In this document: one piece after another, positions 7,355-48,430 of the stretch
Layout of the letters: each line of letters starts with the position of its first letter
How positions within the stretch are numbered: position 1 is the first letter of the stretch
From: an uncultured Clostridia bacterium
GTDB taxonomy: Bacteria; Bacillota; Clostridia; Oscillospirales; Acutalibacteraceae
Reading direction: 5' to 3'
Length of the DNA: 64,000 bases
Assembly: GCA_947585965.1 (NCBI GenBank)
Contig: CANPXK010000002.1
Coordinates: 439-64,438 of the forward strand
Made by a program: the position numbers and the translations under genes
Notes under the pieces: model-generated
Database searches by the model: none
Told to the model about the DNA's origin: nothing
What the model saw: only the letters and a program-made list of their open reading frames with translations

Positions 7355-7475
7355 TGTCCGTTGCCTGTAACCCGACCGGAAAACGAGTTATACAACACGG
7401 TCGGATGCAGGCGTCTGTAAAATGTAAAAACCTGATTTATGATTGACAGTGTCGGTTCGGCAACGGGAGAAAACA

Positions 7476-10520: not shown

Positions 10521-10660
10521 TAAATTTACGGTCGGGTCGTGAATTAGCGGTTCCCGATAAAATAATTATTGATTAACAGCGGAGACACTTCCGCCGAATT
10601 GATATTGGGGTGTTTTCGTTGGATTGACAACGGAGGCACCCCGCTGAATTGTTAGCGAGG
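10521..10660 (+). repeat. Intergenic modular repeat: two to three ~48-nt sub-repeats, each ending in a GC-rich hairpin. Apparently related to the 3' end and junction of the 47.3-47.8 kb tandem unit.
   Basis: By-eye colinear blocks: TAAATTTACGGTCGGG here vs TAAATTAACGGTCGAG at 47.75 kb; GTGAATTAGCGG vs GTGAATTGGTTACGG; GGATTGACAACGGAGGCAC vs GGATTGACAGTGCCGGCAC. Internally, TTGATTAACAGCGGAGACACTTCCGCCGAATTG is followed by TTGGATTGACAACGGAGGCACCCCGCTGAATTG. Confidence 0.5.
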
Positions 10661-16100: not shown

Positions 16101-16129
16101 TTGACAGACAGCCATTGTTGTCATATAAT
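16101..16129 (+). promoter_or_regulatory. Consensus sigma-A promoter for the CotH-like gene
   Basis: TTGACA (16101-16106), a 17-nt spacer, then TATAAT (16124-16129). Confidence 0.7.
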
Positions 16130-16181
16130 CGAGGTGTGGGTATATCGGTATATATTAAAAACGAAAGAAGGCGTAACAGTT

Positions 16182-18113
16182 ATGAAAAAGAAATTATCAA
16201 TTATACTTTCGGTTATACTGGCAGTTGTTTCCGTTTCAGCCTGCGGCGGTTCGGGTTCTTCAACTGCAAATGGAACACAGGATGATCAGAGCAGTATAAG
16301 TTCGTCCGCACAAGAGCAGGCGGACGGGTCGGTGGTTGACGATAATACAGAATCAGAACAAAGCAAAGTTTCCGAGTCAACGGATGGAAAGTCCGAAGCC
16401 GAAAGCTCCGCCTCATCCAAGAGTGGAGACTCAGGCAGCAGCGGTACGGCGGACAATTCAAAGGATAATTCCGCATCGTCCACGGTTCAGAACTCTGCAC
16501 AGGGCAGCGTAACAGGACAGACAAGTAAGACTCCGCAGAACAGTGCAACAGAACAGGGCGGAGGAGTTACAGACAATACCGGCGGCACAGGAAACGGCGG
16601 CAATTCCGTCAGCACTGGCAATACCGGCAGTACAGGAAATGACGGCAGTAATCAAAGTACCGGTGGAAGCACTGGCAATACCGGCAGCACCGGCAATTCC
16701 GGCAGTACAGGAAACGGCGGCAGTAATCAAAGTACCGGCAACACCGGCGGTTCGGGTACAAATGTAGGTGACCAGTCTGTATATGAACAGCTTTTCAGCC
16801 TTGACAGTAAGGTGACAATTGAAATAACGATGTCCAAAAGTGAAATGGACAAGATGGATAAAGACTATTACAAATATCAGAGTAAGGGTACAAAATCCCC
16901 CATTTACAGAAAGGCAACAGTTGTTATCACAGTCGGTGGAAAAAGCTATACGATAGATGAGGTAGGAATACGCGCAAAGGGCAATCTTTCTGTTCTGCCT
17001 GTTTATGATGATTCTGGAGAGCTGAATCTTTCGCATTATAAATTAAGCTTTAACGAAACCTTTGATGATAAGGATTATTACGGAAGTGATGCCAAGGTAT
17101 GGAAAAGCACTGCCGAGAGAAAGGAAAGAAAAAACAGACGTTTTGCTACATTGAAAAAGCTCGACGTCAAATGGAACAGAAATTATGACGATACCTATAT
17201 AAGGGAAATTTATGCTGCGGAAATGTTCAGACAGAGCGGGGTTATGGCACAGAAAATCGGACTTTCACAGCTTAAGTTCAATAACAATAACTATGGAGTT
17301 ATGACTATATATGAGCCGATAGATGAGATCTTCCTTGAACGTAATTTGCCGGAGTCCGCTCTCGGAGGAGATCTTTATAAGGTGGGTTGGACATATTCAC
17401 CGGCAAATTATGTGGAAAATCAGGTATCAATAGGTATAACGGACGAGGATAAGGGAGCAAAATATAATTTTGATCTTAAGACAAATGAAAAAACATCCAA
17501 GAACGAAAAGCTTAAGAATTTCCTCAAGGTTATAAATTCAAATCCGACACAATCACAGCTTGAGGCTGTGCTCGATACGGATTATTTTGCAAAATTCCTT
17601 GCGGCATATTATTTTGCGGGAGATCCCGATGACATAAGGAATAATTACAATAACCACTATATCTACTTCAGAAAGGACAACGGAAAGGCGGTATTTATAC
17701 CATATGATAATGACCGCACACTCGGGGTTACAATGGGATATAATCCTGACGGAACGGGAATGACAGGTCAGTCACCCTATTCCAATCGTGCGGCGGGTGC
17801 AAATCAGATTCAGGCAAATCCGCTGATAAAGCTTGCCATTGAGGACGGAAACTTCCTCAATACCAAATACACATCGGCACTTAAAAAGGTTGCGGGACTG
17901 TCATTGTGGAATAATTCACAATTTGAGGCACAGTATAATAAGGCAAAGAAAAATTATCAGAGCTTTGTCAAGCCAAGCATAAGCTTTGCAAATGCAGATA
18001 ATAATTTTAAATTCAGTCTTGACGGAGAATATCCTTCCGGGGAGGAGTCCAATATGTCTTTTTCTGATTTTGTTACAAGAATAATGAAGACCTATAAGAC
18101 CTATGTAAAATAA
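16182..18113 (+). CDS. CotH-like (atypical kinase fold) lipoprotein with a long S/T/G/N-rich linker
   Basis: The lipobox is LAVVSVSAC at the ATG-16182 start. About 190 aa of low-complexity linker follow. The C-terminal ~430 aa resemble the CotH family by recall (YKLSFNETFDD, KLDVKWNRNYDDTYIREIYAAEMF, YFAGDPDDIRNNYNNHYIY). Confidence 0.6.
   Translation: MKKKLSIILSVILAVVSVSACGGSGSSTANGTQDDQSSISSSAQEQADGSVVDDNTESEQSKVSESTDGKSEAESSASSKSGDSGSSGTADNSKDNSASSTVQNSAQGSVTGQTSKTPQNSATEQGGGVTDNTGGTGNGGNSVSTGNTGSTGNDGSNQSTGGSTGNTGSTGNSGSTGNGGSNQSTGNTGGSGTNVGDQSVYEQLFSLDSKVTIEITMSKSEMDKMDKDYYKYQSKGTKSPIYRKATVVITVGGKSYTIDEVGIRAKGNLSVLPVYDDSGELNLSHYKLSFNETFDDKDYYGSDAKVWKSTAERKERKNRRFATLKKLDVKWNRNYDDTYIREIYAAEMFRQSGVMAQKIGLSQLKFNNNNYGVMTIYEPIDEIFLERNLPESALGGDLYKVGWTYSPANYVENQVSIGITDEDKGAKYNFDLKTNEKTSKNEKLKNFLKVINSNPTQSQLEAVLDTDYFAKFLAAYYFAGDPDDIRNNYNNHYIYFRKDNGKAVFIPYDNDRTLGVTMGYNPDGTGMTGQSPYSNRAAGANQIQANPLIKLAIEDGNFLNTKYTSALKKVAGLSLWNNSQFEAQYNKAKKNYQSFVKPSISFANADNNFKFSLDGEYPSGEESNMSFSDFVTRIMKTYKTYVK
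16560..16765 (+). repeat. In-frame imperfect tandem repeats encoding (S/G)TGN(T/S/G)G units
   Basis: GGCAATACCGGCAG recurs at 16617 and 16674. GGCAGTAATCAAAGTACCGG recurs at 16644 and 16719. Confidence 0.8.
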
Positions 18114-33685: not shown

Positions 33686-33726
33686 CGGAGAGACTCCGCC
33701 CCGGCGGCGTGCCGCCACTGTAAATT
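33686..33726 (-). other. Two adjacent GC-rich hairpins plus an ATTTACAGTG motif in the glgP leader. Possible short copy of the dispersed repeat family.
   Basis: The minus strand reads ATTTACAGTG-GCGGCACGCCGCC-GGGG-CGGAGTCTCTCCG. GGCGGCACGCCGCC is identical to the hairpin core at 47586-47599. Confidence 0.35.
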
Positions 33727-34024
33727 CGGGACTATACCTTATGCAATGCATTAGGTGAAACAGTCCGAACGGTGCTGTATGTAGTATATTCCATAATGCA
33801 CCTGAATTTAATGGAAATTGTTTACTCATATAAAAACAATATCCATATTATTATAACCCATTCTCAACAAATTTTCAACAGAAATACAGAATATTCTTTT
33901 TTTGTGTTTTTTATGTTTCGCCGGTATATGAATAATTTTAGGTAAAAACAAAATTTCGCTTTTATATTGGTCGAAAATGTATTATAATATCCTTGTATAT
34001 TTATGAAATCAGAGGTGTATTTTA

Positions 34025-37350: not shown

Positions 37351-38355
37351 ATGTTTTCAAAGGATATAGGAATAGATCTCGGTACAGCAAATACACTTGT
37401 ATATATGAAAGGTAAGGGCATAGTAATGCGTGAGCCGTCCGTTGTGGCTGTCGACCTTCGTACGGACAGCGTTGTTGCGGTCGGATCAAAGGCAAAGGAT
37501 ATGATAGGAAGAACTCCGGGTTCGATAGTTGCCGTCCGCCCGCTCAAGGACGGAGTTATTGCGGATTTTGATATAACCGCAACAATGCTTAACAGATTTA
37601 TAAAGATGGTTGTAAAAACGTCCGCATTCAGCAAGCCGAGGGTTATAGTATGCATACCCTCCGGTGTTACGGATGTTGAAAGAAGGGCTGTTGAGGATGC
37701 TGTCCGCAGGGCGGGAGTAAAGCAGGTTGAACTTATAGAGGAGCCTATGGCTGCCGCAATCGGTGCGGGTCTTCCCGTTACTCATCCGGAGGGAAGTATG
37801 GTTGTCGATATAGGCGGCGGAACATCGGAGGTCGCTATAATTTCACTTGATGACATAGTTACAGCCTGCTCGGTAAGAGTTGCCGGGGATAAATTTGATG
37901 AATCCATAATTCAGTATGTCAAAAAGAAATATAATCTTCTTATAGGTGAACGCACCGCCGAAGAAATAAAAATCGGCATAGGCTCGGCTTACCCGTATGA
38001 GGGAGAGGGCAGTATGCAGATTAAGGGAAGAAATCTTATGGACGGTCTTCCGAAAGATGTTATAATAAGTGCGGCGGAGGTAAGAGATGCTCTTGCGGAT
38101 CCGCTTTCCGTTATAATTGAGGCAATAAAGACAACACTCGAACAGACTCCTCCGGAGCTTTCGGCTGATATTATAGATAACGGAATTATGCTTACGGGAG
38201 GAGGGGCGCTTCTCAGGGGTCTGGAACTGCTTGTTGCTCAGGAAACGAGTATGCCTGTCCATGTTGCCGAAAGACCGCTTGACTGCGTTGTTGACGGAAC
38301 GGGAAAACGCCTTGAGAGAAATTCCGGTTCGTGGGGACGTTCAAAAAGAAGATAA
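37351..38355 (+). CDS. mreB: Rod shape-determining protein MreB
   Basis: Actin-fold motifs [27 protein letters not shown] and [13 protein letters not shown] are present. Confidence 0.95.
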
Positions 38356-46323: not shown

Positions 46324-47343
46324 TTGGGACTTGATATTGCTATAGATCTCGGGACCTCCCGAACGAGGATATATTTGCAGAATAAAGGAAAGGTGGTTGA
46401 CGAGCCTTCCGTTATAGCCGTCAACCTTGATAATGACAATATTATAGCTGTGGGGGAGGAAGCATATAAAATGCTCGGGCGTACCTCTGACCGATACAGT
46501 GCCATTTATCCCCTCAGCGGCGGTGTTATATCCGATCTCGGACTTGTTGAGGTTATGATATCCTCTTTTTTGAAGAGAGTTGTTTCCTCAAAGATTGGAA
46601 TGCCGAGAGCTGTTGCCTGTGTTCCGGGGGAGATAACCGATGTTGAGAAGAGGGCGGTTGTCAATGCGATAAGTTGTTCGGGAATCAGGAGGGTATGTCT
46701 TATTGAGGAGCCTGTTGCGGCGGCTATCGGAGCCGGGATCGACATATCGAGTCCTCACGGGTCGTTTGTTGTTGATATTGGCGGAGGAACCACTGATCTT
46801 GCGGTTATATCGCTCAGTGGCATTGCCGTATCGAGGTCGATAAAGCAGGCCGGGAACATTATGGATGAGGAAATAATCAAGTATGTTAAGAAAAAATACA
46901 ATATGTTGATTGGAAAGAGGACAGCGGAGGAAGCCAAGATAAAGATCGGTTGTGTTATTCCGGGCATGGGAATGGGGACATACCGCATCAAGGGAAGGAA
47001 CATGATAACGGGTATGCCCATGTGGATAGATCTTGCATCTGAAGAAACTGCCGAGCCCTTAAAAGAGACTGCTGCTTCTATTGTACGTCAGGTACAGGAT
47101 GTTCTTGAGGAAACGCCGCCGGAGTTAATTGGTGACATACATTCGGACGGAATAGTTCTGACAGGCGGTGCTGCGCAGATAGCGGGGATGGACACATTAA
47201 TTAAGATGGCGACAGATCTGCGTGTTACAACAGCGGAAAATCCTGCTGATTGTGTTGTAAACGGATGTGGAGCCGCCATAAAATACATTGACCGTTTACG
47301 TCACCCCGATGGCACCGTAACCCCCATTTCCGACCGCTTCTAG
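46324..47343 (+). CDS. mbl: MreB/Mbl-family actin-like protein (second paralog)
   Basis: The TTG start follows AAGGGTG. IAIDLGTSRTRIY, DIGGGTTDLAVISL and IVLTGGAAQIAGM motifs are present. Confidence 0.88.
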   Translation: MGLDIAIDLGTSRTRIYLQNKGKVVDEPSVIAVNLDNDNIIAVGEEAYKMLGRTSDRYSAIYPLSGGVISDLGLVEVMISSFLKRVVSSKIGMPRAVACVPGEITDVEKRAVVNAISCSGIRRVCLIEEPVAAAIGAGIDISSPHGSFVVDIGGGTTDLAVISLSGIAVSRSIKQAGNIMDEEIIKYVKKKYNMLIGKRTAEEAKIKIGCVIPGMGMGTYRIKGRNMITGMPMWIDLASEETAEPLKETAASIVRQVQDVLEETPPELIGDIHSDGIVLTGGAAQIAGMDTLIKMATDLRVTTAENPADCVVNGCGAAIKYIDRLRHPDGTVTPISDRF

Positions 47344-47831
47344 CGGCGAGCCGCCGCACCCATGTTCGCGGGGTCGCTCACTTTCGTTCGCTTTGTTTTT
47401 TGTGGAGGTAAGTCTGTTTCCGCGACAGGTAGTTTGCCTGTCGGTGTTGGGTAGAGAGTGTCGTGAAAGCCTCTTGCGAGGCTTTCCGCAACTACAAATG
47501 ACATACTCATCTATTGTTCATCAAGTAAATTAACGGTCGAGTCAAAGACTTATTTATCTGAATAAATTAGTTACGGATTGACGGCGGCGGCACGCCGCCG
47601 CTCACTGCGTTCGCTTTGTTTTTTGTGGAGGGTAGTCTGTTTCCGCGATAGGTAGTTTGCCTGTCGGTGTGCGTAAGAGAGTGTCGTGAAAGCCTCTTGC
47701 GAGGCTTTCCGCAACTACAAATGACAAACTCATCACTTGTTCATCGAGTAAATTAACGGTCGAGCCATAGATTAATTGACCTGAGTGAATTGGTTACGGA
47801 TTGACAGTGCCGGCACGGCACCGGCACGCCG
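47344..47831 (+). repeat. Noncoding tandem direct repeat: two full ~223-224-bp copies plus the first hairpin of a third. Each copy carries the same set of hairpins.
   Basis: Anchor pairs give the period: CGCTCACT at 47375/47599, GAAAGCCTCTTGCGAGGCTTTC at 47465/47688, and GGATTGAC at 47575/47798. Details are in the findings. Confidence 0.9.
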
Positions 47832-47959
47832 CTATAGGCGGATAAAGCTGATTATTATAGCTATTATGGCGAAAATGATTGCCAGCTTCTTTTGCTTGTA
47901 CATCTTTGTTCCATTAGAAGTTTTGGATTTTCCAAGACGGGCTGCAATTATAAATGTAA

Positions 47960-48430
47960 TTATTGAAAAAAGACTCCGAAACCGAAAAAACTGAAAAATA
48001 ATGCAAGTGTACCCATAATAAGACAGGTATGCTCGTTGAACTGTATTTTTGGTTCGTTATTCGACATATGCATATTATTGAAAAATGGGATATTGTTGAA
48101 ATCTCTGTCTTGATTGTTTCCTGCTCCGTCTAAGAACGAACTGTAATTATTCGTTTTTGGAGATACAGTAGGTATGTCCTCGGTGTTGGTGTTATTATTA
48201 TTTTGATATGAATTATCTGTAAAATTCAAATCATTATCCGTGTTATAAGCAATATTATTTGGTATATCAGCTTTTGTAATATATTCACATTCGGTATCGT
48301 AGTTTTGATGTGTGCTGTCGTCATCGGTAAGGACATTGCTGCCGTATATTGTATCTTTTTTCTCCTCGGGGAATTTTACCTCGGGGAATATTTCGTCAAA
48401 CGACATCTCGGTAATATTTTTATTATCCAT
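47960..48430 (-). CDS. Hypothetical Asn/Asp-rich protein with a C-terminal TM segment. Apparently truncated by a 1-nt frameshift.
   Basis: A GGAGG RBS sits 5 nt before the ATG. The ORF ends inside a hydrophobic helix (..LALFFSFFGFGVFFQ*). The next frame continues with SIITFIIAARLGKSKTSNGTKMYKQKKLAIIFAIIAIIISFIRL* down to 47832. Confidence 0.6.
   Translation of the reverse strand: MDNKNITEMSFDEIFPEVKFPEEKKDTIYGSNVLTDDDSTHQNYDTECEYITKADIPNNIAYNTDNDLNFTDNSYQNNNNTNTEDIPTVSPKTNNYSSFLDGAGNNQDRDFNNIPFFNNMHMSNNEPKIQFNEHTCLIMGTLALFFSFFGFGVFFQ

Follow-up and report, generated by a model that had tools for sequence, protein, structure and literature searches.

Two hairpin-bounded units between convergent genes

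This work concerns a tandem repeat array at positions 47344–47831 of a 64-kb stretch of DNA from an uncultured Clostridia bacterium. The whole 64-kb stretch is referred to as the window, and all positions are those of the window. The array lies between the gene for an MreB/Mbl paralogue and a small membrane-protein gene on the opposite strand, and its features are collected in Table 1. Direct reading of the sequence confirms the location given in an initial annotation of this DNA, namely a convergent gap that opens directly after the stop codon of the MreB paralogue; the whole spacer between the two convergent stop codons consists of array, stop to stop. Two units arranged head to tail, with ends marked by G+C-only hairpins, occupy this spacer in host DNA with a G+C content of 41%.

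The initial annotation had described a tandem direct repeat with a period of 223–224 bp and roughly 85–90% identity between copies, and three measurements agree with it. Tandem Repeats Finder reports a period of 223 with 2.0 copies, 89% matches and a score of 716 at 47375–47817; an ungapped self-comparison aligns 47385–47600 with 47608–47823 at 88% identity and a spacing of 223; and BLAST of the region against the window aligns 226 nt at 88% identity (E = 3e-78). The last part of the unit, said to be less conserved, is indeed so: by thirds, units 1 and 2 are 90.7%, 92.0% and 81.3% identical. A hairpin scan also recovered the G+C-only junction hairpins and the 9-bp stem that had been listed, the latter without mismatch at both 47465–47486 and 47688–47709. 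One assignment has to be changed. The segment at 47806–47831, taken to be the first hairpin of a third copy, is a tail hairpin of the kind that closes every unit and every array of the family described below. The junction hairpin at 47582–47600 does double duty, as the tail hairpin of unit 1 and as a shortened head of unit 2.

Table 1. Coordinates of the array, its parts, its flanking genes and related remnants in the window.
Feature	Position	Strand	Evidence
MreB/Mbl paralogue, upstream flank; stop TAG at 47341–47343	46324–47343	+	Pfam MreB_Mbl, E = 4.7e-114; sequence read
Array head: GC hairpin GCGGCG-AGC-CGCCGC (47343–47357), then linker ACCCATGTTCGCGGGGTC	47343–47375	+	Hairpin scan; aligns with head region of 28 family units
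Module A of unit 1; internal 9-bp hairpin GAAAGCCTC-TTGC-GAGGCTTTC at 47465–47486	47376–47495	+	BLAST to module A
Module B of unit 1; 3′ end ...GTTACGGATTGAC	47496–47582	+	BLAST to module B; nhmmer unit model, E = 2.5e-87 for unit 1
Junction GC hairpin CGGCGGCG-GCA-CGCCGCCG; 8-bp GC stem, GCA loop	47582–47600	+	Hairpin scan
Module A of unit 2; internal hairpin at 47688–47709	47600–47718	+	BLAST to module A; nhmmer; pairing across family units
Module B of unit 2; 3′ end ...GGTTACGGATTGACAG	47719–47807	+	BLAST to module B
Terminal GC tract GTGCCGGCACGGCACCGGCACGCCG: tail hairpin (7-bp stem, 47807–47827) plus CGGCAC-type extension; array end	47807–47831	+	Hairpin scan; 3′ outer boundaries of all arrays
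Small membrane-protein gene, convergent flank; stop at 47832–47834 adjoins array	47832–48430	-	No Pfam match
Decayed B tail with degenerate hairpin, just 3′ of the stop of a ROK-family gene	10521–10596	+	nhmmer, E = 1.3e-5
Weaker second tail-plus-hairpin remnant (GGATTGACAACGGAGGCACCCCGCTG)	10621–10650	+	nhmmer, E = 0.065; sequence read
Tail-plus-hairpin remnant (GAATTTACAGTGGCGGCACGCCGCC) in the 5′ leader of a glycogen phosphorylase gene	33695–33741	-	nhmmer, E = 4.3e-5
Marginal tail-like piece (TGATTGACAGTGTCGG...), possibly a chance match	7439–7466	+	nhmmer, E = 0.37

Shorter related pieces had been suspected at three further places in the window, and these were scored by nhmmer with a profile of the family unit. 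The pieces at 10.5 kb and 33.7 kb stand, and the one at 7.4 kb is only marginal. All four remnants listed in Table 1 are tail pieces. At the site orthologous to 10.5 kb, a relative (L008) carries a well-preserved A(59-)-B unit, between flanks that are 96.5% identical to those in the window.

A modular repeat family in lagomorph-gut Clostridia

The unit has many relatives. An exact 30-mer taken from it occurs at 4 loci in two uncultured rabbit-gut Clostridia metagenome-assembled genomes (MAGs). A gapped pattern matching the unit's 3′ part (the B tail) found ~28 true loci in rabbit material, only in four 'Lapin' rabbit-gut Clostridia MAG species, and at least 22 of these loci are contigs of the closest relative, Lapin-002 bin18 (bin18 hereafter). 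The same pattern occurs in 18 European-hare metagenome contigs, from an organism 97–98.7% identical to bin18. In total the family comprises ~50 arrays, spread over unrelated loci of five assemblies. With a profile built from 28 full units, nhmmer recovers 90 units in the first 28 loci, and 112 distinct B tails, each with its tail hairpin, were collected over all loci. Many copies sit at contig ends, as would be expected of repeats that interrupt assembly. Judged by MreB orthologues, the host belongs to the Acutalibacteraceae-like Clostridia of rumen and gut, and the family is restricted to a small, Acutalibacteraceae-like clade within the Clostridia of lagomorph guts. The initial annotation had allowed for a unit with no other copies and no conservation in related genomes, which is not the case. 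The family is previously undescribed; it is a new family of a familiar kind and no new RNA gene.

The basic element is ~260–280 bp long and consists of a head GC hairpin followed by CTGTCATGTTCGCGG, module A, module B, and CGGATTGACAG followed by a tail GC hairpin. In the head, the hairpin is followed by CTGTCATGTTCGCGGGGTC or GGGCAATTCGCGGGGTC. Module A (~120 nt) encloses the internal GC hairpin, module B (~89 nt) has the 3′ end ...GTTACGGATTGACAG, and the tail hairpin frequently has a variable number of CGGCACG-type repeats appended to it. GC-only stems of 6–8 bp are found at all unit boundaries and have a constant flank, ...GGATTGACAG at the tail and CTGTCATG... at the head. Aligning the 28 full units shows that the head (hairpin + CTGTCATGTTCG) and the tail (CGAAC/GGAT-TGACAG + hairpin) are reverse complements, loops included (TGC in the head, GCA in the tail); the basic element therefore has terminal inverted repeats of ~25 nt, and in its minimum-free-energy fold the head pairs with the tail.

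Module maps show that arrays follow the plan head-A-(B)n-tail hairpin, with n = 1–6 and with repeats of A-B; the six tandem B modules of L010 have a period of 103. Some arrays contain inserted modules C (with a classical hairpin-plus-T terminator) or D (a hairpin chain), both of which are absent from the window. Module D is ~145–170 nt long (...GTTTTAGGTCAAGCCTTTTTCAAAAGGCTTGCGG...GGTCGCCGTCCGCAGACGGCGAAATC...), very well conserved, and has a compensated hairpin of its own (CCAAAGGC vs CCAGAGGC). It was found at L001/L009 (3′ of an ilvC-like gene), L022, L027, L237, L034 (4039–4160) and L062 (2742–2802), and has no family match in Rfam. It also reaches beyond the range of A and B: a D-like match with E = 3e-9 lies in a rumen Acutalibacteraceae MAG, and weak D-like and A-like matches were seen in the rumen Acutalibacteraceae MAGs L062 and L053. 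Units within an array are co-oriented, head to tail, with one rare exception at an array end in L004 (1112–1180), where a short B start (ATGACATACTTAT) precedes an inverted copy of itself plus an inverted A end (ATAAGTATGTCATTTGTAGTT), giving a head-to-head junction.

Comparison of the locus between relatives shows how such arrays change. The locus holds two units in the window, one unit in the hare contig L241 and A-B-D-B19-B in bin18, all of them close relatives with 95–97% identity; among more distant ones, a species with a 94% identical MreB has only a decayed D module, and in three other species the site is empty (MreB is 93–95% identical in the species with an empty site or a decayed D). 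Identity is 88.6% between units 1 and 2 of the window, 97.0% between unit 2 and the only unit of the hare locus, and 90.6% between unit 1 and the first unit of bin18, in genomes whose flanking genes are 93–93.5% identical at third codon positions. The two window units are thus old paralogues with separate orthologues and not a fresh duplication, because each has its own closer orthologue in relatives. Other orthologous pairs, from genomes 97–98.7% identical, differ by whole-unit insertions and deletions at hairpins and by fusions at 2–5-nt homologies. Arrays grow and shrink by whole or partial modules, with breakpoints at GC hairpins or short homologies, and as a result of this rapid gain and loss orthologous arrays differ even between genomes that are 95–98% identical.

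These observations bear on a further account of the region, that it is a recent, neutral, local tandem duplication of no wider significance. Two adjacent copies with no mobility gene beside them are what such an event would leave. The 11.4% difference between the units, their closer orthologues in relatives and the ~50 arrays at unrelated loci refute this account, to which we assign practically no probability. The region is probably one array, local to this spacer, from a family of modular interspersed repeats that are non-coding and non-autonomous and resemble the pneumococcal BOX elements and the bacterial interspersed mosaic elements (BIMEs) of Proteobacteria. The suggestion of a modular intergenic repeat like pneumococcal BOX, one of three options in the initial annotation, is accordingly supported by a family that is dispersed, modular and variable in copy number between close relatives.

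RNA structure, mobility and gene 3′ ends

A second of those options was a tandem small RNA (sRNA) gene pair: each 223-nt unit would be a gene for a small or structured RNA, and the family a set of paralogous RNA genes. Some features fit. On both strands, a unit folds far better than its shuffled controls do (z = -4.6 and -5.0), a result that palindromes give and that is uninformative on which strand matters. Pairing is kept through compensatory changes in three hairpins of the 28 full units: pairing in the internal hairpin is 99% complete, both sides have changed at 5 pairs, and three fully complementary versions exist (GAAAGCCTC, GAGCGGCTC and GAGCGGCGG); the head and tail hairpins also alternate between complementary versions, the head with a compensatory GC/CG swap. 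Between the hairpins, linear blocks (GCTCAC, GTTCGC, TTTGCCTG.CGG, AAATGA, GGTCGAG and TTACGG in the 28-unit alignment) are strongly conserved among copies, and the 97.0% identity of unit 2 with its hare counterpart exceeds the 93.5% at third codon positions of the flanking genes.

The wider structural evidence points away from RNA genes. Neither the 28 full units nor the 112 B tails contain covariation outside the three GC hairpins on either strand; in the B tails the tail hairpin is the sole consensus structure, whichever strand is folded, and long-range pairings proposed by RNAalifold were rejected, none having compensatory support. The CGAYAGG/CCTGTCG stem to which that annotation had drawn attention is present in both window units (47423–47443 and 47646–47666), but is not a conserved feature of the family: two of its pairs are broken in 12 of 28 copies, with no compensatory change. 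Rfam searches bear out the earlier impression that the unit matches no RNA family. At the gathering score the window gave no match, at E-values up to 10 the interval 47200–48000 gave noise only, and the arrays of 7 related loci gave nothing. (The one genuine Rfam match of these searches, a T-box in L017, is unrelated.) No tRNA or tmRNA was detected by ARAGORN, and neither the array nor its unit contains a consensus promoter or terminator. In addition, units occur truncated, in B-only runs or fused at arbitrary points, and arrays are sense and antisense to their neighbours equally often (8 vs 7 in same-strand gaps). On this evidence an sRNA gene pair is not supported, and we regard RNA genes as quite unlikely.

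The description of the unit as non-coding holds, since the 46-aa plus-strand open reading frame (ORF) of copy 1 (47393–47533) is interrupted by a TAG in copy 2. Minus-strand ORFs were rejected as genes; their frames are broken by 1-nt indels, and they recur because the DNA repeats, nothing more. Other candidates considered and discarded were group II intron fragments (no Rfam intron matches) and type I/III toxin-antitoxin repeats, CRISPR and integron attC arrays (no toxin, Cas or integrase gene, wrong period, no core sites). The conserved linear blocks could be protein-recognition sequences.

As an interspersed repeat, the family would spread in the manner of a MITE (miniature inverted-repeat transposable element) or of a REPIN, a mobile unit defined by an inverted pair of repetitive extragenic palindromes (REPs). 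A mobilising enzyme encoded elsewhere would recognise the hairpin-containing ends, and copies would persist where insertions are tolerated, chiefly in gene 3′ flanks. Mobility is proposed because of the dispersal of the family and its terminal inverted repeats. The remaining option of the initial annotation, a decayed mobile element, fits in part: the element looks non-autonomous and has terminal inverted repeats, but no autonomous partner was found and the window copy is intact, the pieces at 10.5 and 33.7 kb being the decayed ones.

Several findings weigh against an interspersed mobile repeat. Pfam scans of ORFs in the 64-kb window found no autonomous partner or mobilising enzyme; the 53 large ORFs have a housekeeping match or none, and the lack of a transposase, reverse transcriptase or Cas gene, noted earlier for the immediate neighbourhood, extends to all of them. 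Recurrent ORFs around ~46 loci include no transposase, only ABC-transporter ATPase and NifS paralogues, and a crude regex screen of 469 kb of clade DNA detected neither HUH nor reverse-transcriptase (YxDD) motifs. Plasmid, phage and viral collections hold no related sequence. A scan of genomes with the head pattern, aimed at an autonomous partner, was swamped by chance matches in high-GC genomes, and this search was not exhaustive. No consistent target-site duplication was seen at the outer boundaries of the ~50 arrays, nor any clean pair of filled and empty sites with both flanks (in the pair L239/L005, the L239 array lies at the very start of its sequence, with no left flank), and for want of a consistent duplication we can only infer transposition; a TA at the boundaries of the window array was discarded as a duplication since it is not general among arrays. 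A mobile repeat does not account for the conserved blocks GCTCAC, TTTGCCTG.CGG, GGTCGAG and TTACGG, and the terminator or RNA-stabiliser role discussed below is proposed from position and hairpin stability, for hairpins without U tracts. Finally, the two ends of the units are unequally preserved: among the 90 profile matches the 3′ end is intact in ~78 and the full 5′ end is present in 32, a bias that symmetric cut-and-paste plus recombination does not predict.

The asymmetry is what would be expected if units were added singly by copying anchored at the 3′ end, either by reverse transcription primed at the tail hairpin, like a short interspersed nuclear element (SINE), or by a rolling circle that ends there (HUH, IS91/Helitron-like). 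A 3′-anchored process would leave intact 3′ ends, variable 5′ ends and head-to-tail arrays, and the order of units within arrays agrees with it, as do the tail origin of four of four window remnants, the several arrays that open with a 5′-truncated unit directly against unique flanking DNA and the varying number of CGGCACG-type repeats at the tail. However, most arrays start with a complete head, an inverted copy of the tail and hence a terminal-inverted-repeat feature, and end with a tail hairpin. The 5′ start points fall into a few discrete classes (model positions ~150, 163, 181 and 192) at hairpin junctions or short homologies, which recombination can explain, and 3′-truncated units and internal fusions exist as well. 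No reverse transcriptase or HUH enzyme was detected in the window or the 469 kb of clade DNA. We consider such copying very unlikely, and give equally little credence to its corollary that machinery acting in trans would land new copies on existing GC hairpins at gene ends.

A different enzyme would be involved if the GC hairpins with their TGACAG flank were REP-like palindromes, moved as single-stranded DNA by a single-copy REP-associated tyrosine transposase (RAYT; an IS200/IS605-like Y1 HUH transposase), with modules A–D as a BIME-like mosaic filler. The palindromes are short, G+C-rich and present in high copy number, and TGACAG or CTGTCA flanks them as a constant tag. The loops of the tail hairpins are GCA triloops, and GNA triloops are unusually stable in DNA hairpins. 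Copies are extragenic and enriched in convergent gaps, solitary tail-plus-hairpin pieces were found, and the head and tail hairpins are inverted relative to each other, as in REPINs as these were defined (PMC3116915, PMC3337134). This proposal is nonetheless unlikely. A RAYT was found neither in the 64-kb window nor by the motif screen of the 469 kb of clade loci, the tag is neither GTAG nor CGTC, the inverted hairpins lie ~220 bp apart where a short spacer would be expected, and hairpins are almost never seen without a neighbouring B tail. Just two features hint at an unusual mechanism: stem sequences are swapped without loss of pairing, and 3′ and 5′ ends are unequally preserved.

The placement of the modular repeats was assessed with gap classes derived from crude gene calls in all loci. 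Convergent gaps make up 10 of 28 array-bearing gaps and 30 of all 297 gaps (odds ratio 6.9, p = 9e-5). In same-strand gaps 8 arrays are sense and 7 antisense, so that there is no orientation bias; arrays had at first seemed to follow the direction of the upstream gene, but this was an artefact of convergent contexts and gave way to these counts once both flanks were known. At the locus studied here, the array would have replaced the entire convergent spacer, including any ordinary terminator. Its very stable GC hairpins, functional in either orientation, would form the 3′-end structures of both flanking transcripts and may act as barriers to read-through or to 3′-exonucleases. A canonical hairpin-plus-T terminator is present at the empty orthologous site of L033 but not in the array, which leaves these hairpins as the only candidates for the 3′ ends of both transcripts. 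More widely, some convergent gene pairs appear to have lost their ordinary terminators to arrays. By analogy, the GC hairpins probably serve as transcript 3′-end structures, a role established for REP/BIME and proposed for SPRITE and BOX (PMC3049150).

Arrays of this kind have practical consequences. They fragment short-read assemblies, they are at risk of being annotated as ORFs or sRNAs, and their variation between near-identical strains, like that of variable-number tandem repeats (VNTRs), makes them potential strain markers. To our knowledge, almost nothing is known of such modular repeats outside Proteobacteria, streptococci and a few other groups; the family adds to the small modular interspersed repeats, with an uncultured lineage of gut Clostridia as host. 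The apparent replacement of terminators would allow the use of a selfish repeat as a transcript-end structure to be tested in a Firmicute. Copying anchored at the 3′ end, if true, would define a class of non-autonomous element undescribed in bacteria (a bacterial SINE-like or HUH rolling-circle element).

Other features of the window were recorded in passing. Across the array boundaries and both stop codons, the 20-nt segments 47334–47353 and 47822–47841 (CCGCTTCTAGCGGCG... and ...CGCCGCTATAGGCGG) show 85% complementarity. GC-rich motifs that happen to coincide are the probable reason, since the MreB end DRF* also occurs at empty sites and is thus native. The convergent membrane-protein gene forms a single ORF of ~198–203 aa in bin18 (L002) and in the hare contig, where the product has two C-terminal hydrophobic stretches resembling transmembrane helices. 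Compared with these, the window copy lacks 1 nt near 47962 and falls into two pieces, which reflects either a genuine frameshift (pseudogene) or an error of homopolymer sequencing. The MreB/Mbl gene that adjoins the array comes after recD2 and a comFC-like gene, and a second MreB/Mbl paralogue lies at 37351–38355 within an mreB-mreC-(mreD)-PBP2-minD cluster. GC skew is +0.15 to +0.24 over 1–47 kb and -0.06 to -0.13 from 48 kb. Its cumulative maximum falls at the array, where gene orientation also flips, and this switch could be a replication terminus or a mere boundary of gene-strand bias; nothing there comes within 8 mismatches of the Bacillus subtilis dif site. Elsewhere, a 75-bp tandem repeat at 16599–16738 (1.9 copies, 90% matches, with 18- and 9-bp sub-repeats), inside the ORF 16101–18113, falls within the N-terminal part of a CotH-domain protein. 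Between 22000 and 28000, G+C falls to 35–37% over a cluster of teichoic-acid/glycerophosphotransferase and Stealth-family polysaccharide genes, which may be a horizontally acquired surface-polymer locus.

Comparison with known repeat systems

The nearest analogue in architecture and behaviour is BOX of Streptococcus pneumoniae and S. suis. Membership in BOX, REP/REPIN or MITE families is not claimed, because BOX was likened by description only, the REP tag is absent, and no RAYT, parent insertion sequence (IS) or target-site duplication was seen.

Each of the other systems shares a part of the picture. MITEs such as RUP, Correia/NEMIS, ERIC and bcr1 are, like the present element, small, non-coding, multicopy and intergenic, with terminal inverted repeats (~25 nt here) and end-to-end folding. 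In contrast to them, the family has no identified target-site duplication or parent IS and has G+C-rich ends in an A+T-rich genome, and its tandem modular arrays and frequent 5′-truncated units are atypical of MITEs. Mycobacterial MIRU-VNTR loci also consist of intergenic tandem units whose number varies between strains, but MIRUs are 40–100 bp long, lie within operons and follow gene orientation, whereas the arrays here are without orientation bias. SPRITE, a pneumococcal element resembling a Rho-independent terminator, is likewise interspersed at gene 3′ ends and has been proposed to be co-opted as a terminator. It has a U-rich tail that the hairpins described here lack; module C alone carries a hairpin-plus-T terminator.

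With REP/BIME and REPIN-RAYT systems of Proteobacteria the family shares short, GC-rich extragenic palindromes with a constant tag, mosaic clusters in which these are combined with other short motifs, sites at gene 3′ ends and between convergent genes, and, in the case of REPINs, a mobile unit defined by an inverted pair of palindromes. REP and BIME sequences are known 3′ stabilisers or attenuators of mRNA, a role that is suggested by analogy here. The tag differs, however (TGACAG, as against GTAG or CGTC), and no RAYT was found. Apart from the head, the palindromes of an array do not alternate but share one orientation, they are separated by ~200 bp of conserved non-palindromic sequence, and the host is a Firmicute.

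BOX elements have terminal boxA and boxC modules around tandem boxB modules, vary between strains and are enriched downstream of coding sequences (PMC3049150). Compared by description, with no sequence relationship demonstrated, the present family differs from them in its host, a clostridial one, in modules about twice as long, in the G+C-only hairpins at its junctions, with stems swapped between haplotypes, and in the tandem repetition of whole A-B units beyond that of the internal module alone. ISSpn2 has been proposed as the source of mobility for BOX, and no candidate IS with matching ends was found here. The resemblance is nevertheless extensive. Like boxA-(boxB)n-boxC, the family is a non-coding composite repeat of a low-GC Firmicute, in which the tandem internal modules vary in number and are bracketed by terminal modules that are distinct and show partial inverted complementarity, and its optional modules C and D are comparable to boxD, boxE and boxF of S. 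suis. Both are present in dozens of dispersed copies whose module number varies between close strains, both are enriched 3′ of coding sequences, with a mobilising enzyme that is uncertain in either case, and both form stable stem-loops.

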